From positions 608,001 to 672,000 of the forward strand of contig JAHPZA010000006.1 of assembly GCA_019058445.1 (NCBI GenBank): 64,000 nucleotides of DNA, in the 5' to 3' direction. Of this stretch, positions 12,582 through 26,161 are shown one piece after another (within the stretch, counting starts at the first letter, position 1; each line of letters starts with the position of its first letter). The notes beneath the pieces are model-generated. The model was not told the origin of the DNA and did no database searches. It saw only the letters and a list, made by a program, of their open reading frames with translations. This DNA comes from Promethearchaeota archaeon (lineage in GTDB: Archaea > Asgardarchaeota > Lokiarchaeia > Sigyniarchaeales > SOKP01). The translations under genes and the position numbers were made by a program.

Positions 12582-13100
12582 TTATTGCTTTATCTTTAAA
12601 GCTAATTTTACAAAGAGTCTTTCTAGATCAAGTTGATACCCAATTAAAGGAGTAAGATTAATGTGATTTAAATTCCTATCAAACTTCAAATAGCCTTTCT
12701 GCTCTAGTTCTCTTAAATCCTCTATAACACCTTTCTTTTTTCGAATAGTTTGAATTTCAGTAATTTTTGAGATTCCATCAGGATTTTTCAGACAGCAAAC
12801 TATAGTGCAAAATAAAGTGGCTGCTAATCTTGGTTTGTTTTCGAATGGGTTTGCTGAAATAAGATCAGAAACTTCCGAATCATAAGAGATAAACCAATGA
12901 GAGTTAATAGGATTGTATCTGATTTGAAGTCCTAACGGTTCAATATATTTGGATAAATTAATTATTAAATAGTGGAAATGTCCGCTTTTATTTTTGGTTT
13001 TAACATTAAGAGTATGAAAAATTTCGCTCTTAGTAGCACCTATTACATACAAATTATTTTTATTGCTCAACATATGCATTAATATTGATATTTCATTCAT
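12582..13100 (-). CDS. KITE subunit (Nse1/Nse3/ScpB-like tandem winged helix)
   Basis: Last gene of SMC-kleisin operon; LIINLSKYIEPLGLQIR and LRELEQKGYL..LTP resemble Nse1 WH segments. Confidence 0.6.
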   Translation of the reverse strand: MNEISILMHMLSNKNNLYVIGATKSEIFHTLNVKTKNKSGHFHYLIINLSKYIEPLGLQIRYNPINSHWFISYDSEVSDLISANPFENKPRLAATLFCTIVCCLKNPDGISKITEIQTIRKKKGVIEDLRELEQKGYLKFDRNLNHINLTPLIGYQLDLERLFVKLALKIKQ

Positions 13101-13118
13101 TTTTTTATTTCCTCCCTA

Positions 13119-13766
13119 TTATAAATAGATTACATTAGTTTCTTTTAGATATTTTAGTGTACCTAATTGGAGTAAATGCAAAAGATACACAAAATTTTCA
13201 TAAATAACTTCTTGTTCTGTATAATCTTCAAAAATATCTTCAAGTGAGCAAGGCAATTTTGTTCGAATGGAGTTAAAAAATTTCATCATTTTTTCGGTAA
13301 ATTTATGTTTCGGTATTTCTAATAGAAAATTATTTTTAATTTTACCTTTGCGTAGATGCTCAATTGCTATTGGATCCCCTCTGTCAATACTTAATCTATT
13401 TTGACTTAATTCTAAGAAGTCCAGTGAGAGTGCGTCAATTGTGAATAATTCTATCCAACATTCATTTAAAAGGGCATATATTTCTAAATCAGAAGGATTT
13501 GAATTTAGATAATTTAGAAACTGTTTTTCAGATTCTAAAGAGCTGAGCATCGATCTTAATTCATCAAATTTTTGATTGAGTAGAATGCAGGCATTTTTAT
13601 AAGTTTCTGAACTTTTTTCAAGATTTTGGACGGTTAAAGAGTCTTTTAATTCATCAAATAATGGAACTAATTCAAAATCAAGTAATTTAATATCTCCCGA
13701 AAGAATTTTTTTTTGGATATCATCTATTCTTTCATTTAGCTCATGAGTAATATCCTTAACTGTCAT
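13119..13766 (-). CDS. Kleisin (ScpA/Nse4-like)
   Basis: C-terminal kleisin winged helix ENFVYLLHLLQLGTL; 3 bp downstream of SMC. Confidence 0.7.
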   Translation of the reverse strand: MTVKDITHELNERIDDIQKKILSGDIKLLDFELVPLFDELKDSLTVQNLEKSSETYKNACILLNQKFDELRSMLSSLESEKQFLNYLNSNPSDLEIYALLNECWIELFTIDALSLDFLELSQNRLSIDRGDPIAIEHLRKGKIKNNFLLEIPKHKFTEKMMKFFNSIRTKLPCSLEDIFEDYTEQEVIYENFVYLLHLLQLGTLKYLKETNVIYL

Positions 13767-13769
13767 ATT

Positions 13770-16700
13770 TCACTCTTTTCGAATTACTTTCGGTTTAAAT
13801 ATAGTAGAAACTTCATCTTTACCTGTCCTTGCAACACCTATTAATTTTTCTGCAAGGAGATATAAGGCATTTGATGATTTCGGTAAGAAGATTATCATCT
13901 GGATATTTGGATTTTCGTTAAGAGTGGACTCTATCATTTGATATGCAACTTCTGAATTTTTATCATCGAGAAACATCGCTGCCTCATCTAACATGCAAAG
14001 TGGGGAGGGTTTTAATTCTTGGAGAGAAAGTATCAAACAAATTGAGATCATAGAAACTTGACCCCCACTTAATGCTGTACAGGATCGTAATTGATTTTTT
14101 GAAAGTGCCGCTTTTATTTCTACTCCTAAATTCTCAAAATCACCTATTAATTCTAGAGAACAATAGGCTTTAATTTCAGAGGATTTGAATTTATGATTTA
14201 TTTTCGTTTTTAAATCGTTCAGAACGTTTTCAAATTTAGTATAATAGGTATCTTCCATTTTATTTTCGGTCTTTATCGCAGCATCAATGTCTTTTTCGAT
14301 ATCTTTTTGATTGCTTGCAATATCCTTTAACCCAGTTACGATTTGGTCACGTTCAACAAGGAGCGAATCATCAATATCTAAAAATTTGATTAAATCTTTG
14401 TCGATTTTTAATATATCCATCTGTACTTCTTCTATAGACCTTAATTTAATCTTTTTTTCTGTAATTAAAGGGCCAATTTGTGAATTGATTCGATCTAAAT
14501 CTTCCTTTTTCGCATCTAACTTTTGTCCTATATAATTTAAACGAATGTTTTCCTGCTCAAGCTGGACATTGATTTGAATGTTGTTAATATCAAACGTTTT
14601 TTTCTTCTCTTGAATATCCAGCTTTTTTTCATTTAAATCTACTATTTTTTTCTCTACTTCAGATATTTTATCTTCTAACTTCCCTAATTTATTGTAGATA
14701 GCGTATGCTTCTTTATGCCGTTTTTTTAGATCCTCATCTTTAGTCTTAAATTCATGATTTAACAGGGAAATAGTATGATTTTGTGCATTTATCTTATTTT
14801 CAACTTCGCTTAAAATTTGTTGATTTTCTGTATGTTTTATATTCCATTTCTTTTTTTCACTATTGTATACTTTAAGCTCCGTAGGGATTTCTTTAATGCG
14901 ATCATTCCACTTAAAAAATTGAGGGCTAGTTTTGGATTGAATATCTTCTATTTTAAGCTCCAATTCTTTTATGTCATTCTGGAATTCAGCATTTTTATTT
15001 TCTAAAACAGTGCGATCTTTAAAAAGTCTATTCTTCTTGGCTGTGAGGCGTTGCTTTTGGCTAAAGATATATGCTAGATCGTGATATGCCTCTTTTTTTC
15101 TTAGAGTTTCTCGTTCCTCTTTATCAAATTTAGATAAATTTACATCACATTCTAAAATCTGTTCCTTTAAAGATTCAATTTCTAATTCTAATTTGTTGGC
15201 TTGTTCTCTCTGTGTACCTGCACTCAATAATCCTTTTAAGGGTCTTATATAGGGAGTTTCATATACATACTTATATGAGGTTATTTGTTTTCCTTTTAAT
15301 GTTACGCATTTACCTTTAAAATTATAATTCTTGTATAGTTCCACTCCACTACGATAATCTTGAACTACCATACAATTCCTAACTTTAGAATAAAGTACTT
15401 TTTTAATGTCCTGATCATTATCAATAACATCAATTAAATCTATTAAATATCCAATTGCGCCCTTGGTTGTAATTGGAGGATATTTGCTAATATTAATCTT
15501 TTTAGGAGTATAAATATTACAAATAGCCCTATTGTTGTCTCTTAATCTCTGCATTAGGGTCATTGTTTCCCAGTCTTCAGCAATAAAACTAAATAATAAT
15601 CGTTCCCCTAACACAGACTCAATAGCATAGCTTAAAGAATCTTCATACTTTAAATATTCGACTATCGGCCCTTTAACTCTTAAATCACGTCGTCTTATTT
15701 CTTCTTTAAGCAGTTCTATATTTGATTTAAAAGGATAAATAATTTTTCTTTTCCTAAGAGATTCTTGGAGATGATTAAATTTTTTTAATTTTTTATATCT
15801 CTCTTGTTCTAATTGTTCCTTTTTAAGCTGAATTGAAAATTGTCTAGAATTGATTTCTCTATGTCGGTTGTCAAGCTTTTTTAAAAGATTTTCTGTTTGG
15901 TCTTCTAAAAACCATTTATTTTGATCAAGTTTATGGTCAATATCATCGAGACCTTGGAATATTTGCTGAGTTTCATTATTAATTTTTTTAATTTCATCCT
16001 TATTTGCTAAAATTTCTTTTAGTTTACTTTCTTTTTCTGAGACTATTTGATTAAATTGTTCCACAAATTCTATATTACGGTTAATTTTTTTCTGTAAATC
16101 ATCTTGTTCCTTAATCAAATCGTCAAGATGTAGTTCAATACTATTGATTTTTTCTTTAATTAATTTAATCTCTTGAGTTAAGCTCTTTTTTTGATTCTTA
16201 TAGTTTTTAAGTTGTTTCTTCTCTTTGCTAATTTTCCCAGTTAAGTTTTTTAAATCTTGGGTAATCATAATTTCGTCTGATTGCCATTTTTTAACTTCCG
16301 CGATTAAATCTTTTCTTTTTTGCTGATGTTGCCCCAACTTGCTGTTAAGATAATTTATAATTTGATCTGTATTAAAAACCTTAGCCTCTAATTTTTGAAC
16401 TTCCCTATCCACCTTTTCCTTTTTGACTTTTATCTCATCAATTTCTACTTTAGCTTTAGAGAAGTCTCTTTGAAGATATTTAATTTCTTCTTTTAATTTA
16501 TGTCTATTAGCCCACAATAGTTCATCTTCATATTTTCTTTTAACCTCTAAGAGTTTATGTTTTTGTTCTAATCGCTCAAGTTTGGGTTGTAAGAGATCTA
16601 AGCTAATATTCAACACATTTTTTTTACTCTTTAAGGCATTTAATTCGTTATTTAAATTCATAACGCTATGCTTCTGTTGTAAGATCTCATCTCTGAGGCT

Positions 16701-17210
16701 TTTTAGTCCAATTCCCTCCTCAAGAAAATTGCATAATTCTGTAGGTTTGAGGTTTTTGATGGCATCAATTTTACCCTGGCTAACAAACGCAAAATGGTTA
16801 TCGGGATTATACTTAAAATCACTAATAAGTTTTTGAACTTCTAATACTTGGGCTTTTCTAAAATCTTTATCATTTTTACTTTTAATTAAGAAATGTGGCG
16901 ACTGACCTCTAATGACAGTTCTTCTAATTTTTATCAATTCATGGTCCTTTTGGATATGAAGCTCAACCATGGCATGGTTTTGTCCAAGCCTTATAAAATC
17001 CGACCACTTTTTATAGCGCTCATCTCTTTCATTACTTCCCAAAGCAAATTTAATTGCCTGAAAAATAGAAGTTTTACCAGACCAATTAGGTCCAATCACA
17101 AGTATGAATTTTTTATCGTCAAAAGTTACCTCATCCCTTTTAAAACTTAGAAAATTCTCTAAGATCACTTTTCTAATAAAAACTTCATTTTTTTGGGATT
17201 GGGCAGCCAT
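13770..17210 (-). CDS. smc: SMC ATPase, SMC5/6-related
   Basis: Walker A GPNWSGKT, Q-loop FVSQG, coiled coil-hinge (VKGPIVEYL..YAIESVLG)-coiled coil, LSGGQ signature, Walker B MLDE. Confidence 0.9.
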   Translation of the reverse strand: MAAQSQKNEVFIRKVILENFLSFKRDEVTFDDKKFILVIGPNWSGKTSIFQAIKFALGSNERDERYKKWSDFIRLGQNHAMVELHIQKDHELIKIRRTVIRGQSPHFLIKSKNDKDFRKAQVLEVQKLISDFKYNPDNHFAFVSQGKIDAIKNLKPTELCNFLEEGIGLKSLRDEILQQKHSVMNLNNELNALKSKKNVLNISLDLLQPKLERLEQKHKLLEVKRKYEDELLWANRHKLKEEIKYLQRDFSKAKVEIDEIKVKKEKVDREVQKLEAKVFNTDQIINYLNSKLGQHQQKRKDLIAEVKKWQSDEIMITQDLKNLTGKISKEKKQLKNYKNQKKSLTQEIKLIKEKINSIELHLDDLIKEQDDLQKKINRNIEFVEQFNQIVSEKESKLKEILANKDEIKKINNETQQIFQGLDDIDHKLDQNKWFLEDQTENLLKKLDNRHREINSRQFSIQLKKEQLEQERYKKLKKFNHLQESLRKRKIIYPFKSNIELLKEEIRRRDLRVKGPIVEYLKYEDSLSYAIESVLGERLLFSFIAEDWETMTLMQRLRDNNRAICNIYTPKKINISKYPPITTKGAIGYLIDLIDVIDNDQDIKKVLYSKVRNCMVVQDYRSGVELYKNYNFKGKCVTLKGKQITSYKYVYETPYIRPLKGLLSAGTQREQANKLELEIESLKEQILECDVNLSKFDKEERETLRKKEAYHDLAYIFSQKQRLTAKKNRLFKDRTVLENKNAEFQNDIKELELKIEDIQSKTSPQFFKWNDRIKEIPTELKVYNSEKKKWNIKHTENQQILSEVENKINAQNHTISLLNHEFKTKDEDLKKRHKEAYAIYNKLGKLEDKISEVEKKIVDLNEKKLDIQEKKKTFDINNIQINVQLEQENIRLNYIGQKLDAKKEDLDRINSQIGPLITEKKIKLRSIEEVQMDILKIDKDLIKFLDIDDSLLVERDQIVTGLKDIASNQKDIEKDIDAAIKTENKMEDTYYTKFENVLNDLKTKINHKFKSSEIKAYCSLELIGDFENLGVEIKAALSKNQLRSCTALSGGQVSMISICLILSLQELKPSPLCMLDEAAMFLDDKNSEVAYQMIESTLNENPNIQMIIFLPKSSNALYLLAEKLIGVARTGKDEVSTIFKPKVIRKE

Positions 17211-17230
17211 ATTTATAACCTCACACTATT

Positions 17231-18496
17231 TTATTTGCCAAAAGCTCTCTTTATTAGATCAACACGTTTTTTTGCTTTCTCTAAATTAATCTGTGCCATG
17301 CTAGGGGAATCATTTAATATAAAAGGATATTTTGCTACTAATTTTCTCTCATTATCTTCAAGAACTTCCTTTTTATTCAATTTATCAATAATTATCAATA
17401 ATTCATTATAATTCTTTGATGCCGCATTTTCATAGAGTTGATTTATCATGAATTCTGAAACGGACTCTTCTCTAATTTCGGTTAAATATTCATTTTTTTT
17501 TTCCACTAAATCTTTTCGATTATCTAAAATTTTGATATCTTCTTTCATACTAACCTTTGTATTATGCGTCATCCCTATTGAATTATTACTTTCTGGAGTC
17601 GCAAACGCTGTTGATAATATATATTCACCTGATTCAATTATATTAAGCAAAGTATCAGTAATTTCATTACTGATATCATTAAGATCCGCATTTAAAAAAT
17701 GTTTGAAAATACCCATTTTTAATAGTTGTTTAATATCATTAACTTCCCAATTTTCAGTGTATTTTACAAGTGTGTGAATATCAAACACAATTTTTGAATT
17801 CTTTTCTGCAAAATCTTTTAGGTAGGTTTCTCGCTCCACACTATTTAGAAATGGAATTTTAATAAAGAGATCAAATACATTAAATATTCTTTCTGAAATG
17901 TGCACTAGTTCTTCATAATCGTAATTTAGCCAAACAAGTATAGAATTATTATTGATAAAATTAAATTTTCTATTTTTATTATAAAATAAATCTAAAAAAT
18001 TATCTAAAATACTTATATTTTGCAAACTGTCATTCAATTTAGGTTTCTGATTGATTAAAATTAACTTTTTATTGATAGTTTCATCATTTTTAGAATCCTT
18101 GTGTTTTGCATTTTTAGGTTGCTGTGTAGATCTATCCTCTATCGGTTTATTAAAATAATCTACGATTTCAGCAAAGCAATTTAAAAACTCTTTAGGACTA
18201 TTTAATACCTCAGCATTATCTAATTCAAAATACTCTAAATAATAATTACTTGAAATTAATTTAAAAAAGTCAATAATATCCGTACCGGGATTTAAATTTA
18301 TTAGAAGCCCTCCTTTTGGATCTAGATAATTAAAAAGTTCTAATTCCTGGGAATTGGAAACTACAAGCTTTATAAAATTAATTATTTCATTATACTTATC
18401 CCGATAAAAGAGACTATTCTTATCAATATGAATCTCTGAAGGTGAATACCTTTGAAAAAATCTTAAGAATTCCGTATTGCTTTTTAATTCTGTCAT
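17231..18496 (-). CDS. Degenerate (probably inactive) AAA+ ATPase-like protein
   Basis: PKGGLLINLNPGTD at Walker A position (no GKT), FDLFIKIPFLNSVERETYL, FDIHTLVKYTENWEVNDIKQL lid pattern. Confidence 0.6.
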   Translation of the reverse strand: MTELKSNTEFLRFFQRYSPSEIHIDKNSLFYRDKYNEIINFIKLVVSNSQELELFNYLDPKGGLLINLNPGTDIIDFFKLISSNYYLEYFELDNAEVLNSPKEFLNCFAEIVDYFNKPIEDRSTQQPKNAKHKDSKNDETINKKLILINQKPKLNDSLQNISILDNFLDLFYNKNRKFNFINNNSILVWLNYDYEELVHISERIFNVFDLFIKIPFLNSVERETYLKDFAEKNSKIVFDIHTLVKYTENWEVNDIKQLLKMGIFKHFLNADLNDISNEITDTLLNIIESGEYILSTAFATPESNNSIGMTHNTKVSMKEDIKILDNRKDLVEKKNEYLTEIREESVSEFMINQLYENAASKNYNELLIIIDKLNKKEVLEDNERKLVAKYPFILNDSPSMAQINLEKAKKRVDLIKRAFGK

Positions 18497-19779: not shown

Positions 19780-20184
19780 TCATTCAGCAGAATTAAATAC
19801 TTTATTCAATATCTTTAAAAATAACTGTAATTTTTCCCTTTTTAATCCATAATAAGTATAACTCCCTTTTTTCCAACTCTTTATTAAATCCGCTCTCTCT
19901 AACTTCCTAAGATGATGAGAGATTGTAGATTGTGATTTATTAAGGATTGCTTCGAGTTCACAAACACATCTATCTTTCTCTTTCAGCGAGTTGAGAATAA
20001 TTAGGCGTTCCACAGATGCAATAGAGGTGCCAAAATCAGCAATATTTATAAAATCTTCATCATATTTTAAATATTGACCTAAATTCTGTAAATCCTCGAA
20101 ATACTTACTTGAACTACATACACTATCACATGCACATAACATATCCATCAGTTCAGCCTTGCGTTTTGTATTCATGATTAACAC
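19780..20184 (-). CDS. arsR: ArsR/SmtB-family metalloregulator
   Basis: DRCVCELEAIL..SQSTISHHLRKL; divergent from acr3/arsM operon; extra N-terminal CAC..C. Confidence 0.9.
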   Translation of the reverse strand: MLIMNTKRKAELMDMLCACDSVCSSSKYFEDLQNLGQYLKYDEDFINIADFGTSIASVERLIILNSLKEKDRCVCELEAILNKSQSTISHHLRKLERADLIKSWKKGSYTYYGLKREKLQLFLKILNKVFNSAE

Positions 20185-20351: not shown

Positions 20352-21098
20352 ATGAAAACTAATTCACTTAAAAAATTGAAAGTTGGAATAGTATCTGATG
20401 GAAAATATGGTGAAAGAGCTTTTGAGAATATAAAGAGGAACTTTAAAGTATACTGGATTCTCGTTCCAGACATACCTTCTAACATCATGTTAGATGATGA
20501 TTTAGAACTTGATATCCCTGATTGCGATTTATACGTTTCTTACGTTAGACATCCAGATATTATCTTGGAATTAGTAGACCTTCAAAAGCCATTGATACTT
20601 GGCGTATTACCGGGTGTTGGTCTATTAAATCAAGCAAGAACCATAAATCCATATGTAATTCATGCTCCCACCATGTGTTCTCTTGAGAATGATACAGGAA
20701 TTCCAGAAATTGACATATTTACAACCTATTACGGAAGGCCAATTTATGAGCCTAAAATTGATGAAAGTGGAAAATTTAAAGAAATAAAAGTAAAACGCTC
20801 ATCATTATGCGGATCTTCTGAAGCAGGAGCAGATTTTCTTTTAAATAAGGAATTCAACACTGAAAACCTTCAAAATTTTGCATTAAGTGTTTGTCATGAA
20901 TGTCGCGCGCCCCGGTTCGGCCATACATGTGATAAGGAAGTTGCTGGAGTCAATCATTTAGTTTCACTTTTAAATGCGATATCTCCTGAAGATTTGTCTC
21001 AGATTGATCAAAATTTAAGGCTTTTCATCGAAAGTATGAGAGATGAATACTCTAAAAGAATAAATAATTCTAGAATATTATTAAATAAAGTTAGTTAA
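20352..21098 (+). CDS. DUF166-like Cys-rich protein
   Basis: GKYGER, HPDI, TMCSL, YGRP, RSSLCGS, CHECRA..HTC pattern. Confidence 0.65.
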   Translation: MKTNSLKKLKVGIVSDGKYGERAFENIKRNFKVYWILVPDIPSNIMLDDDLELDIPDCDLYVSYVRHPDIILELVDLQKPLILGVLPGVGLLNQARTINPYVIHAPTMCSLENDTGIPEIDIFTTYYGRPIYEPKIDESGKFKEIKVKRSSLCGSSEAGADFLLNKEFNTENLQNFALSVCHECRAPRFGHTCDKEVAGVNHLVSLLNAISPEDLSQIDQNLRLFIESMRDEYSKRINNSRILLNKVS

Positions 21099-21100
21099 AA

Positions 21101-22183
21101 ATGAGTGAAATAAATTTTAAAAACGACAGAATAAATAAAGCAGGAACACCTCATGAGCTAGGACTTTTCGGAAAGTTTTTACCCTTATGGGTAGCTTTAT
21201 GTATTTTTGCCGGAATCGTCCTTTCTCAGGTTGTTCCCGGAATCAGTGAGACGATAAATTCTTGGACAATAGGGCAAATATCCATTCCAATTGGAATCTG
21301 TTTATTCTTAATGATGTATCCAGGAATGCTGAATCTCCAAGCATCTGAATTGAAGAAGCTTGGTAAAAATCCTAAACCTATCATTTTAACTTTAATATCC
21401 AATTGGATTATAGCTCCTTTTGTTGGTTTAATGATGGCAAGAATCTTTTTACAGGGTCATGAGCAGCTAGTCGTAGCAATTATTTTACTTTCTGCCTCCC
21501 CTTGTACCGCTATGGTCCTTGTATGGGGTTGGATGGCCAGAGGGAACCAAGAGCAAAACGTTACCAATACAAGTTTGAATACCATAACAATTATATTTCT
21601 TTATGTTCCTATTGTTATTCTATTAACTGGCATCCAAAATATTCCAATTGATACAACTCTATTAATAATCTCGTTGATATTTTTTATAGGACTTCCATTA
21701 GCATTAGGAATAACATCAAAAAGACTATTAACGCAAACTAAAGGGGAAGAATGGTTTGAAAGCACTTATCGTCCTATGGTAGGAAAAATGTCGATTGTGG
21801 CATTACTGATAACGTTGATTATCCTTTTTTCTTTAAACGGAGATGTTTTACTTAAAAATCCTGAACTTTTACTCCTAGTTAGCATACCTCTCCTGGTTGG
21901 ATTTGCAATCGTCGTTAGCTATAATGTGATTATTACCAAGCTTTTTAAGCTAAAATATAGAGAAGCAGTCGTTACGGTAATCATTGGCTCATCAAGTCAT
22001 TTCGAAATTGCAATTGCTACTGCGATTGCCATATATGGGATTGGATCTATTGCCGCCTTAGGAACCACAATGGGATTGTTCTGGGAAGTTCCTGTGATGC
22101 TTTCAATAGTTTATTTAGGACGATTTCTTCAAAAACGAGGCTTCTGGGAAGTGAAATTTCCAGAAGATTCAAATAATAATTAA
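21101..22183 (+). CDS. acr3: ACR3-family arsenite efflux transporter
   Basis: LMMYP, NWIIAPF, SPCTAMVLVW, SHFEIAIA, EVPVML; about 10 TM. Confidence 0.95.
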   Translation: MSEINFKNDRINKAGTPHELGLFGKFLPLWVALCIFAGIVLSQVVPGISETINSWTIGQISIPIGICLFLMMYPGMLNLQASELKKLGKNPKPIILTLISNWIIAPFVGLMMARIFLQGHEQLVVAIILLSASPCTAMVLVWGWMARGNQEQNVTNTSLNTITIIFLYVPIVILLTGIQNIPIDTTLLIISLIFFIGLPLALGITSKRLLTQTKGEEWFESTYRPMVGKMSIVALLITLIILFSLNGDVLLKNPELLLLVSIPLLVGFAIVVSYNVIITKLFKLKYREAVVTVIIGSSSHFEIAIATAIAIYGIGSIAALGTTMGLFWEVPVMLSIVYLGRFLQKRGFWEVKFPEDSNNN

Positions 22184-22203: not shown

Positions 22204-23085
22204 ATGAAAGATGAAAAAGTAAAAATAAGTATTGTCAAGGATGAAAATGTAAAAAAGGTTGTTAGAGAAAAATATGGAATGATAGCAAAATCAAGCAGCT
22301 CCTGTTGTGCGCCTGTAAACTCATGTTGCACACCTATAAGTTCTTGCTGTGGAAGTTCCGAAACAGATATTATGAGTATGATTAGTAAAAACATAGGATA
22401 TAGTGATGAAGAACTTAAATCTGTACCAGATGGGGCTAATCTTGGGCTAGGATGTGGAAACCCTGTAGCCTTGGCTTCATTAAAAGAGGGGGAGACTGTT
22501 CTTGATCTAGGTTCTGGAGCGGGAATTGATTGTTTTTTAGCTGCTAATAAAGTGGGAAAATCTGGGAAGGTTATAGGTATTGATATGACACCTGATATGA
22601 TATTGTCAGCTAGAATGTATGCTGAAAAAAGTAATTACGATAACATTGAATTTAGACTCGGAGAGATCGAACATTTACCAGTAGAAACAACTACTGTAGA
22701 TATTATCATTTCCAATTGTGTAATCAATTTAGTGCCAAATAAAGATAGAGCATTTCAAGAAGCTTATAGAGTGTTAAAACCCGGAGGACGCTTGATGATT
22801 TCAGATATTGTTTTATTAAAAGAACTTCCTGATTTCGTTTTAGAATCAATAGATGCTTATATAGGATGTGTTGCTGGTGCGATATTAAAAGAAGACTATA
22901 TTAAATCAATGGAAAATGCAGGATTTACGAAGATTGAAGTGTTGGATGAAACTATGTTTCCAATCGATGTTTTAACTATTAATCCAAAAGTTATGGAAAT
23001 AGTCAAAGAGATGAATATTGAGCCTCAAATGTTAAAAGACATAGCGAATTCAGTAGTAAGCATAAAAGTAAAAGCATATAAATAA
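22204..23085 (+). CDS. arsM: Arsenite S-adenosylmethionine methyltransferase
   Basis: LGLGCGNP, LDLGSGAGID, SNCVINL, GCVAGA; N-terminal triple CC tract. Confidence 0.95.
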   Translation: MKDEKVKISIVKDENVKKVVREKYGMIAKSSSSCCAPVNSCCTPISSCCGSSETDIMSMISKNIGYSDEELKSVPDGANLGLGCGNPVALASLKEGETVLDLGSGAGIDCFLAANKVGKSGKVIGIDMTPDMILSARMYAEKSNYDNIEFRLGEIEHLPVETTTVDIIISNCVINLVPNKDRAFQEAYRVLKPGGRLMISDIVLLKELPDFVLESIDAYIGCVAGAILKEDYIKSMENAGFTKIEVLDETMFPIDVLTINPKVMEIVKEMNIEPQMLKDIANSVVSIKVKAYK

Positions 23086-23125: not shown

Positions 23126-24775
23126 ATGGCCGTAACCTATATGCGTAGATTGGAGGAAGAACCAGAAACTTACGATTTAAAATTTACAGCTCTCACTAAG
23201 GGACTAAATATCAAAGTTCAAGAGTGGGTATTGCGTCGAATTCCTGATTCCCAATCAATTTTAGAAGTAGGTTGCGGTACTGGCGCTCTAGCATCGAAAA
23301 TGGCACTTAAAGGTAATAATGTTGTTGCAATTGATAAAAACTTTCAAATGATTAATTATGCAATGCAAAATTATCCTTCTGAAGAGAATGTCAATCTTTT
23401 ATATCAAATTGGAACATTTACAGAATTCCCAGTTGAGAAGAATTCAAAGGATATAATTGTGAGTACTTTTATGTTATCTGAGCTTAGACCATTTGAACAT
23501 CAAATATTTTTGCGAAAAGCATGGAGTGCTCTAAAACCAAATGGTCGAATCATATTAGCTGCTGAATTTATTCCTTCAGGAATTTGGAGGATTCCTTTTA
23601 AAATAAAGCGTTGGTGGTTTAAAAAGAAATTACGTAGACTCAGATTAAGAACTACTTTCTTAGTAAAATGGTTTTATAATTATATTGAGCCAATCGGCTT
23701 TAAAATTCAAACCCTAAAAACTTGGAAACACGGTTCCATACAAGCTATGGAATTAGTAAAGCTAGGCAAAGAACCAGGATTTTATCGCCCCAAACCAAAA
23801 AAGTTTAAAGGAATCCGCGCTCAACTAAGGATATATCGATGTTTATTTACTGGTCAGATTGATCATGTTCCCATAGAACCCGGTATTTATCAATCCGGGC
23901 ACCCTAATGAAAATTCCCCCATTATAGTTACAGCGAATTACGAGTATACATACATTAAAGTTATGCGTAACCTAAAAGGACTTGATGCGTGGGTTTTATG
24001 TGTAGATTCCAATGGAATAAATGTATGGTGCGCTGCTCGTGGTAATGATTTTGGAAATGCCCAATTACTTGAAGCAGTGGAGGCAACAGAAATTCGCAAT
24101 CTTACACAGAAAAAAAAACTTTTACTTCCCCAACTCTCTGCTGGTGGAGTTGCTATACCACAATTACCTAGAAATTCAGAAAATTTTCCATTTAAAATTG
24201 TCTATGGCCCAATTTGGTCAAAAGATATTCGGAAGTATAATGATGAACAACCCGTAAGAAAACCAGACTCAATGAAAATTGCTAAATTTACGGTTTCCCA
24301 TCGAATACGAGCAGGGATTACACATACGACTTTTCTTTTAAGAAAAATCTTTCTTTTACCTCTTATAATCATAGCAGGTTTGTTGTTAGCATTAAATTGG
24401 GAAAATAAGTTATGGTGGATTGGAGAATTATTCATGTGGATTATAATAACAAACGCAATTATCGCTTTTTTATTCCCTCTTTCAAATTTTACCAGAAAAT
24501 TCATTAATAAGGGAATTTTCTTTGGAACTATTAATATATTAGTTTTAGGAGGGATTTCTTGGATATTGCATGGATCATTACTCTTTATTCTCTGGAACTT
24601 GAGTTTTTATTTTTGGATTGCATTTTTTTCCACTATGTCTTTTAGCGGATATACAATGTCAACAAGTCCAAGGGAAATTCAAACCGAATATAGGTTGTTT
24701 TTGATGGTAAATAAAATTTTACTTATTATAAGCTTATTTTTTTTAGCTTTTGGAATAATATTTTATATAATTTAA
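23126..24775 (+). CDS. Class I SAM methyltransferase fused to an HgcA-like corrinoid/membrane protein
   Basis: N-term LEVGCGTG and STFMLSEL; C-term EPGIY..SPIIVTANY..GINVWCAARG..LPQLSAGGV..YGPI, TM helices and MSFSGYTMSTSP tail as in HgcA. Confidence 0.85.
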   Translation: MAVTYMRRLEEEPETYDLKFTALTKGLNIKVQEWVLRRIPDSQSILEVGCGTGALASKMALKGNNVVAIDKNFQMINYAMQNYPSEENVNLLYQIGTFTEFPVEKNSKDIIVSTFMLSELRPFEHQIFLRKAWSALKPNGRIILAAEFIPSGIWRIPFKIKRWWFKKKLRRLRLRTTFLVKWFYNYIEPIGFKIQTLKTWKHGSIQAMELVKLGKEPGFYRPKPKKFKGIRAQLRIYRCLFTGQIDHVPIEPGIYQSGHPNENSPIIVTANYEYTYIKVMRNLKGLDAWVLCVDSNGINVWCAARGNDFGNAQLLEAVEATEIRNLTQKKKLLLPQLSAGGVAIPQLPRNSENFPFKIVYGPIWSKDIRKYNDEQPVRKPDSMKIAKFTVSHRIRAGITHTTFLLRKIFLLPLIIIAGLLLALNWENKLWWIGELFMWIIITNAIIAFLFPLSNFTRKFINKGIFFGTINILVLGGISWILHGSLLFILWNLSFYFWIAFFSTMSFSGYTMSTSPREIQTEYRLFLMVNKILLIISLFFLAFGIIFYII

Positions 24776-24812
24776 AATGAAGAATTAAAAAAAAATCATA
24801 AAAAAAATAAAA

Positions 24813-25124
24813 ATGACAGAATTAAAATCAAATCAAAGTTCATGCTGCACTCCGCAAGCGATTGTGCTTCCTCGTATTTTTATAAATACTTCTACATGTA
24901 CGGGGTGTGGCTTATGCGGAGAAGTATGCCCTTTCGGTCTCCCTAAACAGAATAATTCAGGAAAGTACGAAATACCCCATCCCGAACTATGCACTGAATG
25001 TAGTGCTTGTTTTAGAAACTGCCCTACACAAGCCATTATGATGCAAGAACAAAAAGGATGTGGTTGTTTATGGGATACACGTCAAAGAGCAAAAAATTCA
25101 CAGCAAAATTTATGCTGTGGTTAA
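24813..25124 (+). CDS. HgcB-like 2x[4Fe-4S] ferredoxin
   Basis: CTGCGLCGEVCP and CTECSACFRNCP, then KGCGC and terminal CCG; directly after hgcA-like gene. Confidence 0.85.
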   Translation: MTELKSNQSSCCTPQAIVLPRIFINTSTCTGCGLCGEVCPFGLPKQNNSGKYEIPHPELCTECSACFRNCPTQAIMMQEQKGCGCLWDTRQRAKNSQQNLCCG

Positions 25125-25147: not shown

Positions 25148-25537
25148 ATGGAAAAAGAAGAATTAAAAAAAATTGAAAATTCTTGTTGTACACAAAGCAC
25201 ATCGTGCTGTGGAAGTGCTGAGTCAGATCTTATCGATACATCAACTAATAAGGGGATTAAAAATGAATTAGATCCAAGTAAGCTAAATGTTGATATATAT
25301 GTTCCTCTAGACGCCTGTGCATGCGAGTGGTCTCAATTTATGAATCTTATTTTTAGTGCCCTTACACCACATATTAAATATATTAAATATGAAACAAAAA
25401 ACTTAAATTCTAAAGAAGCTCGAAGCCTTAATATTCGGAGCAAATGCGTTATAGTTGACGGAGAAAAAAAATATACAACCTCATATGCCTTAAAGAAAGA
25501 TCTACCTAATTTATTGAAAGAAAAGGGAATCCTATAA
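25148..25537 (+). CDS. Cys-rich small protein, probable thioredoxin-like fold (ArsD-like chaperone?)
   Basis: N-term SCCTQSTSCCG; DIYVPLDACAC; CVIVDGE. Confidence 0.6.
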   Translation: MEKEELKKIENSCCTQSTSCCGSAESDLIDTSTNKGIKNELDPSKLNVDIYVPLDACACEWSQFMNLIFSALTPHIKYIKYETKNLNSKEARSLNIRSKCVIVDGEKKYTTSYALKKDLPNLLKEKGIL

Positions 25538-25574: not shown

Positions 25575-26045
25575 ATGAAAAAGATTTTTTTTGATATCAA
25601 TTTACCAATAAAGAATTTTCAAAAGGGTAAGAAGTACACAGTTGAAGTAAAAGACAACGCTACATTTTTAGAATGTCTCGCGATGGTTGATAAGCAAGAA
25701 CTCGAAGATCCAAAATCCATTTTTCCTATAAACGAGGGATTTATCCACAATTATTTACAGTTATTGGTTAACATCGAAGAAAATTATATTTACGATGATG
25801 TAGGGGTATATGCTTATGGTCCGGATGAAAATGGACTTATGAGAAAATTCATTCCAATTAGAGATAATGTAGAATTTAACGTATATCCTGACAGTGAAAT
25901 TCAATTACAACCTGATGTTGGATGTTGATGAGAAGCGGTGCAAGATCGGCTGGATATTGGAAAATTTAAAACAGTCCTACGTAAACGATATGGGAAAGAT
26001 AACGATTATTTTGCACATTACTTTAAAAAAGAAAAAGAAAAATAA
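25575..26045 (+). CDS. MoaD/ThiS/Urm1-like ubiquitin-fold protein, candidate selenoprotein with C-U-U motif (156 aa with readthrough; 117 aa if TGA is stop)
   Basis: Beta-grasp pattern ending EIQLQPDVGC; TGA TGA at 25926-25931; 37 further open codons to TAA 26043-26045; SECIS-like hairpin follows. Confidence 0.72.
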
Positions 26046-26047
26046 TA

Positions 26048-26093
26048 TGTTGAATGAAATCTTTCAAAAAATTGTAGTGAAAGATTGACAATA
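26048..26093 (+). ncRNA. SECIS-like element (eukaryote/Lokiarchaeia type) in 3' UTR
   Basis: TGTTG/CAATA lower stem, AAU bulge with tandem GA/GA kink-turn core (AUGA..GA), AATCTTTCA/TGAAAGATT upper stem, A-rich loop AAAAATTGTAG. Confidence 0.75.
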
Positions 26094-26161
26094 GGACCGC
26101 CTCCTATATTTCTTAATGAATAATTTAAAAAATCTCGTTATATTTTCTATCGTGAATATAT

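Follow-up and report, generated by a model that had tools for sequence, protein, structure and literature searches.

A 64,000-nucleotide stretch of a Promethearchaeota archaeon assembly (GCA_019058445.1, contig JAHPZA010000006.1, positions 608,001 to 672,000; hereafter the window) carries, at 23126-24775 on the forward strand, a single unbroken open reading frame (ORF) of 549 residues in which a class I S-adenosylmethionine (SAM) methyltransferase is joined to a corrinoid-binding domain of the HgcA type and a transmembrane tail. The gene for an HgcB-like ferredoxin follows directly. The fusion is a non-canonical relative of the mercury-methylating HgcA proteins, and on balance we favor the reading that it encodes a self-charging corrinoid methyl relay, in which a methyl group would pass from SAM to cobalamin and then to a thiophilic metal(loid), with arsenic or antimony the favored acceptor in Lokiarchaeales. 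Coordinates below are positions within the window, and profile searches compared ORF translations with Pfam and NCBIfam. The two-gene unit consists of the following parts:

23126..23755 (+): CpaM-like class I SAM methyltransferase domain, residues 1-210 (NF043040, invariant SAM residues, Foldseek)
23861..24295 (+): HgcA-type corrinoid-binding domain, residues about 246-390 (PF03599, NF040863, invariant NVWC)
24293..24775 (+): C-terminal five-helix membrane domain, residues about 390-548, and stop codon (model; NF040863 to residue 540)
24813..25124 (+): HgcB-like 2x[4Fe-4S] ferredoxin, 103 residues (Fer4 families in Pfam, NF040864)

An earlier note, made from the sequence alone, had described a methyltransferase of about 210 residues in frame with an HgcA-type corrinoid domain and a transmembrane tail, and Pfam, NCBIfam, AlphaFold2 and Foldseek agree on that architecture. 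Pfam places Methyltransf_25/11/31 at residues 43-146 and CdhD (PF03599) at residues 234-339 (3.6e-13). NCBIfam recognizes CpaM (NF043040) at residues 4-209, HgcA_corrinoid (NF040863) at residues 249-540 and HgcAB_like (NF043039) at residues 248-491, with each score falling below the cut-off of its model (135.1 against 180, 165.9 against 275 and 166.4 against 285 bits, respectively). The HgcAB_like alignment breaks off at position 246 of the 350-position profile; the ferredoxin has a gene of its own. An AlphaFold2 model built from 43 homologues is confident along its whole length (predicted local distance difference test, pLDDT, 91.5; predicted template modeling score, pTM, 0.87) and comprises a Rossmann-type methyltransferase, a further alpha/beta domain that includes a short helix (residues 300-305), and five long helices between residues 390 and 548. 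When this model was used as a Foldseek query, the published HgcAB model 9a0b_A ranked first, ahead of many class I methyltransferases bound to SAM or S-adenosylhomocysteine (SAH). In every particular the sequence observation of the earlier note was correct: the fusion, its variant cap helix with the cysteine kept, and the HgcB-like partner are all real and conserved.

The N-terminal domain carries intact class I SAM-binding motifs. Motif I reads ILEVGCGTG (23258-23284), and across 43 sequences, down to 22% identity, G49, G51, G53, D70, E119 and E147 are invariant. CpaM is its best methyltransferase model, with a match that runs end to end (profile positions 3-213 of 216) at a score far above that of the second-best (48.5 bits), though below the model's own cut-off; other fused forms exceed that cut-off (P0131 with 211, P0143 with 276 and P0145 with 212 bits). 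Judged by these profiles, the domain is a divergent CpaM, the "corrinoid protein-associated methyltransferase". It shares the class I SAM fold with the arsenite methyltransferases ArsM/AS3MT, a true member of which is encoded next door at 22204-23085, but it lacks their conserved arsenic-binding cysteines. The only conserved cysteine within residues 1-230 in the 43-sequence alignment is C50, which lies inside motif I, and no ArsM-like arsenic-binding cysteine is found among the conserved residues of the domain. The ArsM model NF008823 gives 33.2 bits with this domain (cut-off 263), compared with 347.3 for the neighboring ArsM. Because its sole conserved cysteine belongs to motif I, the domain is unlikely to bind arsenic in the manner of ArsM. 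It also weakly resembles methyltransferases that act on tetrapyrroles (BchM/ChlM, 32.7 bits; CbiT, 24.7 bits), and ChlM appears at Foldseek rank 41.

The corrinoid domain retains the feature most characteristic of HgcA. Its cap helix reads NVWCAARG (24020-24043), with Cys302 as the predicted cobalt ligand. N299, V300, W301 and C302 are invariant (C302 in 43 of 43 sequences, the most distant at 22% identity). Of 120 close homologues, 118 have the longer string GINVWCAARG, one has GINVWCAARS, and in the other the motif was not found. The model places transmembrane helices at residues 390-422, 430-453, 459-482, 485-509 and 515-548. Canonical HgcA and HgcB (NF040863/NF040864; Parks 2013; Zheng 2024) are similar in having a corrinoid domain with a cysteine cap helix, five transmembrane helices, and a separate HgcB with a Cys73-like cysteine and C-terminal cysteines. 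They differ in that canonical HgcA has no methyltransferase domain and has GK where the window's cap helix has RG. All canonical representatives carry NVWC(A/S)(A/G)GK, rarely with a final E, whereas none of the methyltransferase-fused representatives ends in K. NVWCAARG fails the six Hg-MATE cap-helix motifs, including the high-stringency N(V/I)WC(A/S)(A/G/S)GK (PMC10087281). On the HgcA profile, the canonical representative P0165 scores 389 bits, more than twice the value for the fusion.

We then placed the corrinoid and transmembrane region in two trees, one quick and one careful. As the earlier note had suggested, the comparison covered both HgcA and fused HgcAB. Canonical HgcA forms one clade without any methyltransferase-fused member (support of 99 by the Shimodaira-Hasegawa-like approximate likelihood ratio test in the quick tree; 100/100 in the careful tree), and the window protein sits inside a well-supported Asgard clade (98/90 and 100/98). 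In the careful tree this Asgard clade is the closest neighbor of canonical HgcA (89/83). Both free trees suggest that canonical HgcA is nested within the methyltransferase-fused forms. We do not claim this nesting, as a single non-canonical clade, the arrangement reported by Lin 2023 (PMC10083202), fits too: constraining all non-canonical forms to one clade gave a likelihood 60 log units better than that of the quick tree (approximately unbiased test, p-AU 0.96) and 3.2 log units worse than that of the careful tree (p-AU 0.45), and is not rejected. Taken together, profile, motif and tree place the fusion among non-canonical HgcA relatives, outside canonical mercury-methylating HgcA.

The same holds for nearly all such genes in these archaea. 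HgcA homologues in Asgard archaea are reported in Lin 2023 (PMC10083202), in line with the earlier note, which had listed such homologues in Lokiarchaeia. HgcA-profile matches with a significance of at least 1e-30 (E<=1e-30) occur in 201 of 400 Asgard genomes, but a match above the HgcA cut-off in only one (G397). Organisms with fused HgcAB, when tested, made no methylmercury (Podar 2015; Capo 2022). The exceptional match in G397 (C110:1082-2017, L072; 436 bits) stands beside a non-canonical copy in the same genome, and it may have been acquired laterally or stem from contamination, which is rated at 9% for this genome.

The ferredoxin ORF starts 37 nucleotides downstream of the fusion ORF. 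It contains two CxxCxxCxxxCP motifs (CTGCGLCGEVCP and CTECSACFRNCP), with GCGC cysteines at +13/+15 from the second, and has LCCG at its C-terminus and a further SSCC at its N-terminus, so that the 2x[4Fe-4S] protein with GCGC and terminal CC described in the earlier note can be read directly from the 103-residue ORF. Its best NCBIfam model is HgcB (NF040864; 50.8 bits, cut-off 99). Where canonical HgcB has C(M/I)ECGA, the window ferredoxin has CTECSA and thus fails the HgcB motif. An HgcB-like gene lies directly 3′ of the fusion in all 26 two-gene loci. The same is true of 28 of 29 close loci, taken with short flanks from the closest species-level genomes. Among separate HgcB-like proteins, GCGC(L/I/V)W is kept in nearly all and the C-terminal cysteine pair in most; the fused AB forms L067 and L068, by contrast, have no cysteine tail. 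This retention of cysteine tails in the separate proteins points to handling of a thiol-bound metal in the branch with fused methyltransferase and HgcA-like domains.

The fusion is widespread. Database searching gave 457 homologues, of which the best 120 all span the full length (518-578 residues, 65-84% identity) and come from many independent Asgard assemblies. At E<=1e-20, 202 of 400 Asgard genomes contain a match, in many cases a full-length one; the window's own family accounts for 108 of these, out of 134 genomes, and full-length fused ORFs also occur in several other Asgard families at 30-58% identity. The possibility that the fusion is an assembly artefact or unique to this contig, which the earlier note had raised against itself, is rejected by these hundreds of independent full-length copies. 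Exact look-ups identified two cultured carriers, Promethearchaeum syntrophicum (QEE17993.2) and Lokiarchaeum (UYP44054.1). The Lokiarchaeum copy (L055:7992-9752, minus strand, 587 residues) has an insertion of about 35 residues in its methyltransferase domain and is annotated as a mitochondrial ubiquinone biosynthesis O-methyltransferase. Separately, many genomes of the family carry a second paralogue, a 365-374-residue open frame of HgcAB-like size, beside the fusion (for example G271:C14:84779-85564, G210:C83:83972-84688 and G233:C77:8450-9217); the window's genome has the fusion only. An in-frame TGA in the homologue from G326 was considered as a selenocysteine site and rejected, since the stop lies upstream of the true start.

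A HMMER library search extended this picture beyond close relatives. Roughly 20-25 clusters at 50% identity have the two-domain layout, some of them bacterial (Abyssubacteria, Anaerolineae), and the search also returned triple fusions of methyltransferase, HgcA and HgcB (582-644 residues) as well as HgcAB-like proteins without a methyltransferase. The same parts therefore occur in three layouts. In L011, a standalone CpaM of 224 residues (220 bits, above the cut-off of 180) ends 5 nucleotides before an HgcAB-like protein (396 bits). CpaM is fused to HgcA and followed by a separate HgcB-like gene in the window and at 26 further loci. In the third layout all three parts form one protein, as in P0146 (CpaM 265 bits, HgcAB_like 362 bits) and L067; L068 is a split form within Asgard archaea. 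Such a Rosetta-stone pattern suggests that the CpaM, HgcA-like and HgcB-like parts cooperate directly.

The fusion is not an unrecognized novelty. NCBI already catalogues an uncharacterized module of CpaM and HgcAB-like proteins, among the latter the "fused HgcAB" that Podar 2015 and Lin 2023 describe (for example from Pyrococcus furiosus). It names some 548-residue Hodarchaeales fusions "CpaM" and Ranarchaeia triple fusions "HgcAB-like fusion protein". The catalogued module has the same three parts as the window system, and its HgcAB-like proteins share a cap helix without the canonical GK; P0268 even carries the identical NVWCAARG. The window system differs in that its methyltransferase is fused to the corrinoid protein while the ferredoxin is a separate gene, and this ferredoxin retains the GCGC and C-terminal cysteine pair missing from L067 and L068. 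It also scores under all three NCBIfam cut-offs (135, 166 and 166 bits), belongs to a clade of its own (98/90), and in Lokiarchaeales its family is linked to ArsR and ACR3. By these sequence comparisons the fusion represents a divergent, Asgard-wide branch of the catalogued module: its architecture and its phylogenetic position are new, but the kind of system is not. We found no paper describing the CpaM module or a methyltransferase-HgcA fusion in Asgard archaea, which does not prove absence elsewhere.

Two other corrinoid systems offer further points of comparison. The corrinoid iron-sulfur protein's large subunit (CdhE, the acetyl-CoA synthase corrinoid protein) has a homologous corrinoid-binding fold (PF03599; NF003195 matches the fusion with 59.7 bits at residues 233-340), but it has neither a cap-helix cysteine nor a membrane domain and receives its methyl group from a TIM-barrel methyltetrahydrofolate transferase. 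The window's genome encodes its own CdhE and CdhD at other loci; together with the fusion, these are its only PF03599 genes. During reactivation of methionine synthase (MetH), an electron donor and SAM turn inactive cobalamin into methyl-cobalamin within one polypeptide. The resemblance is by analogy only: the SAM-binding fold of MetH is unrelated, and SAM serves there for repair rather than for each turnover.

We next considered the genes around the fusion. A divergent ArsR gene is followed by DUF166, ACR3, ArsM, the fusion, the HgcB-like ferredoxin, a 129-residue cysteine-rich protein, a small ORF and YdjM, all co-oriented and separated by gaps of 2-67 nucleotides. The flanking features are:

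19780..20184 (-): ArsR/SmtB metalloregulator, divergent (HTH_5 7e-17; NF033788 69.7 bits, cut-off 55)
20352..21098 (+): DUF166 protein, first of the co-oriented run (PF02593 2.4e-26)
21101..22183 (+): ACR3-type arsenite/antimonite efflux permease (TIGR00832 281.9 bits, cut-off 282.8; SBF 1e-38)
22204..23085 (+): ArsM arsenite SAM-methyltransferase (NF008823 347.3 bits, cut-off 263)
25148..25537 (+): accessory thioredoxin-fold protein, 129 residues (AlphaFold2 core; invariant CxC)
25575-26094 (+): small ORF, 117 residues to the first stop (conserved with the fusion)

To gauge which of these neighbors are conserved, we used the 29 close loci together with 28 wider loci drawn from across the phylum with 8-kb flanks. 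Helix 3 of the window's ArsR carries a CVCE site, and the N-terminus of the protein a cysteine cluster (LCACDSVC), a combination characteristic of thiolate sites for soft metal(loid)s, here predicted from sequence. ArsR adjoins the fusion in 12 of 28 wider and 12 of 29 close loci; the adjacent copies keep CVCE, and most of those from the Loki order also have the N-terminal CxCxxC cluster. In 19 of 29 close loci, as in P. syntrophicum (L054) and Lokiarchaeum (L055), the gene directly upstream of the fusion encodes ACR3; among the wider loci ACR3 is adjacent in 8 of 28, all from the Loki order. ACR3 has DUF166 upstream of it in 10 of the 29 close loci. ArsM, whose N-terminus in the window is a cysteine-rich SSSSCC..SCC..SCC tail, is next to the fusion in none of the 29 close loci, including two genomes of the same genus, and appears in one of the 28 wider loci at a distance of about 6 kb (L059). 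Because none of the 29 closest genomes has it at this position, ArsM here is a genome-specific insertion into the operon.

Downstream of the HgcB-like gene, the 129-residue protein and the small ORF are both present in 18 of 29 close loci. The former has no Pfam or NCBIfam match. Its core (residues about 45-128) is modeled with a thioredoxin-like fold at a pLDDT above 90, with C57 and C59, invariant in 23 homologues, forming a CxC where thioredoxin has CxxC, and it is preceded by a variable, cysteine-rich N-terminal tail (SCC...SCC). Foldseek returned weak thioredoxin matches (E 0.006-0.02). We considered and set aside an assignment as ArsD, which is likewise absent among the Foldseek matches listed. 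The protein may serve in thiol or metal(loid) hand-over. On the other flank, an SMC-type operon (12582-18496, minus strand) lies just past the divergent ArsR, and several related contigs share the synteny of SMC genes, ArsR, ACR3 and fusion (L004, L008, L010).

A second Loki operon type, in the window's family, consists of ArsR, the fusion, a longer HgcB-like gene, mostly an EamA transporter, and then flavin reductases, with ACR3 absent. Examples are L006:10056-12636 and the P0076 locus, with a 120-residue HgcB-like protein ending in a CGCG...CCG tail, two flavin reductases and a cupin. Outside Lokiarchaeales, clustering of neighboring ORFs in the 28 wider loci gave no recurrent neighbor besides ArsR and the HgcB-like gene, and the gene upstream of the fusion in L013 had no NCBIfam family match.

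The relay that we favor would work as follows. The CpaM-type domain would bind SAM, the HgcB-like ferredoxin would reduce cobalt to Co(I), and the CpaM domain would then methylate the Co(I) of cobalamin held in the HgcA-type domain to give methyl-Co(III), with Cys302 as the lower axial cobalt ligand. The GCGC and terminal CC of the ferredoxin would present a thiol-bound soft metal(loid), which would accept the methyl group at the membrane. In purified HgcAB, SAM donates the methyl group via methyl-Co(III) with cysteine ligation (Zheng 2024, PMC11588087), which confirms the donor that the earlier note had named. For the acceptor, the ArsR-type thiolate sensor, the ACR3 pump and the ArsM insertion lead us to favor As(III) or Sb(III) in Lokiarchaeales, an assignment we infer from these neighbors. 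Such a link has a parallel in Pseudodesulfovibrio mercurii, in which hgcAB is regulated by an ArsR-like protein that responds to arsenic and to SAH (bioRxiv 10.1101/2022.10.17.512643).

Several observations weigh against this reading. The ars context cannot separate arsenic from mercury, since ArsR and ars genes are often adjacent to true hgcAB as well, with acr3, arsR, arsC and arsM all reported in its flanks (McDaniel 2020, PMC7438021); the context thus ties the whole HgcA superfamily to arsenic-type regulation and does not name the acceptor. No ACR3 neighbors the fusion outside Lokiarchaeales in the wider loci, and the second Loki operon type has an EamA transporter and flavin reductases in its place. 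The neighboring ArsM could mean that arsenic methylation is already covered. Finally, canonical HgcAB uses SAM without a methyltransferase domain, so cobalt methylation may not require the fused one. The earlier note's proposal that this domain charges the corrinoid from SAM agrees with the invariant SAM motifs, the three layouts and the lack of ArsM-like cysteines; taken as a whole, its interpretation is partly supported.

The reaction of canonical HgcAB with SAM in the absence of such a domain also leaves room for the methyltransferase domain to act elsewhere, on a final substrate or on the corrinoid ring, with the corrinoid domain using another donor or serving in redox or transport. The weak likeness to tetrapyrrole-acting methyltransferases (BchM/ChlM, CbiT) would suit such a role. 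We nevertheless consider it improbable, given that CpaM is obligately paired with or fused to a corrinoid protein in three layouts, a classic signature of direct cooperation, that the domain has no substrate-binding cysteines, and that the pTM of the model suggests a fixed arrangement of domains. A somewhat more credible, though still unlikely, alternative is that the acceptor is organic (a small molecule, lipid head group, thiol or natural product at the membrane), the ars-type genes being neighbors through regulation alone. In its favor, members of the wider CpaM/HgcAB-like group (L011, L012) occur in varied contexts lacking metal genes, and beyond Lokiarchaeales ArsR and the HgcB-like gene are the only conserved neighbors found in the loci sampled. 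The regulator, however, has a multi-cysteine metal(loid) site, ACR3 is tightly linked in most close relatives (gaps of 2-40 nucleotides), and the separate HgcB-like proteins retain the GCGC and terminal CC that L067 and L068 have lost.

The fusion could also be a genuine mercury methylase, with Hg(II) on the HgcB-like cysteines methylated as by HgcAB and the fused domain just speeding the charging of cobalamin. The residues important for mercury methylation are all kept: the cap-helix cysteine, the cysteine after the second Fe-S motif and the C-terminal cysteine pair (for the roles of the latter two in HgcB, see PMC7305189). Moreover, the five-helix membrane domain is retained, the Asgard clade is the nearest to canonical HgcA in the careful tree, and the many cysteine-rich proteins of the operon would suit mercury. 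Set against this are a profile score of 165.9 bits for a 275-bit cut-off, failure of the six cap-helix motifs and of the HgcB motif, a position outside the canonical clade with support of 100/100, and an above-cut-off HgcA match in just 1 of 400 Asgard genomes. We therefore judge mercury to be a rather unlikely native acceptor, less so than a role for the methyltransferase domain elsewhere, and return to a SAM-to-cobalamin relay serving another soft metal(loid) as the reading that best fits these data.

Together, the fusion and its two alternative layouts provide independent comparative-genomic support for SAM as the methyl source in the HgcA superfamily, a recent and unexpected biochemical finding. 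Because almost all Asgard "hgcA" matches are non-canonical, caution is warranted when metagenomic surveys list Asgard archaea as putative mercury methylators, and public annotations such as "UbiE", "acetyl-CoA decarbonylase/synthase gamma" and "ubiquinone biosynthesis O-methyltransferase, mitochondrial" mislead. With two cultured Asgard archaea carrying the gene, its function is experimentally testable. The tight ArsR-ACR3 linkage, together with the ArsM found here, offers a handle on the long-standing question of the native role of HgcAB-type enzymes, and bears on the existence of an anaerobic, cobalamin-dependent route of metalloid methylation. A bolder proposal, which we regard as doubtful, is that in anoxic marine sediments the Asgard system methylates arsenic or antimony by a route that depends on cobalamin and not on ArsM, and that canonical HgcAB arose from a methyltransferase-fused ancestor by loss of the methyltransferase. 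If true, mercury methylation would be a side product of ancient machinery for methylating metalloids by the SAM-to-cobalamin route.

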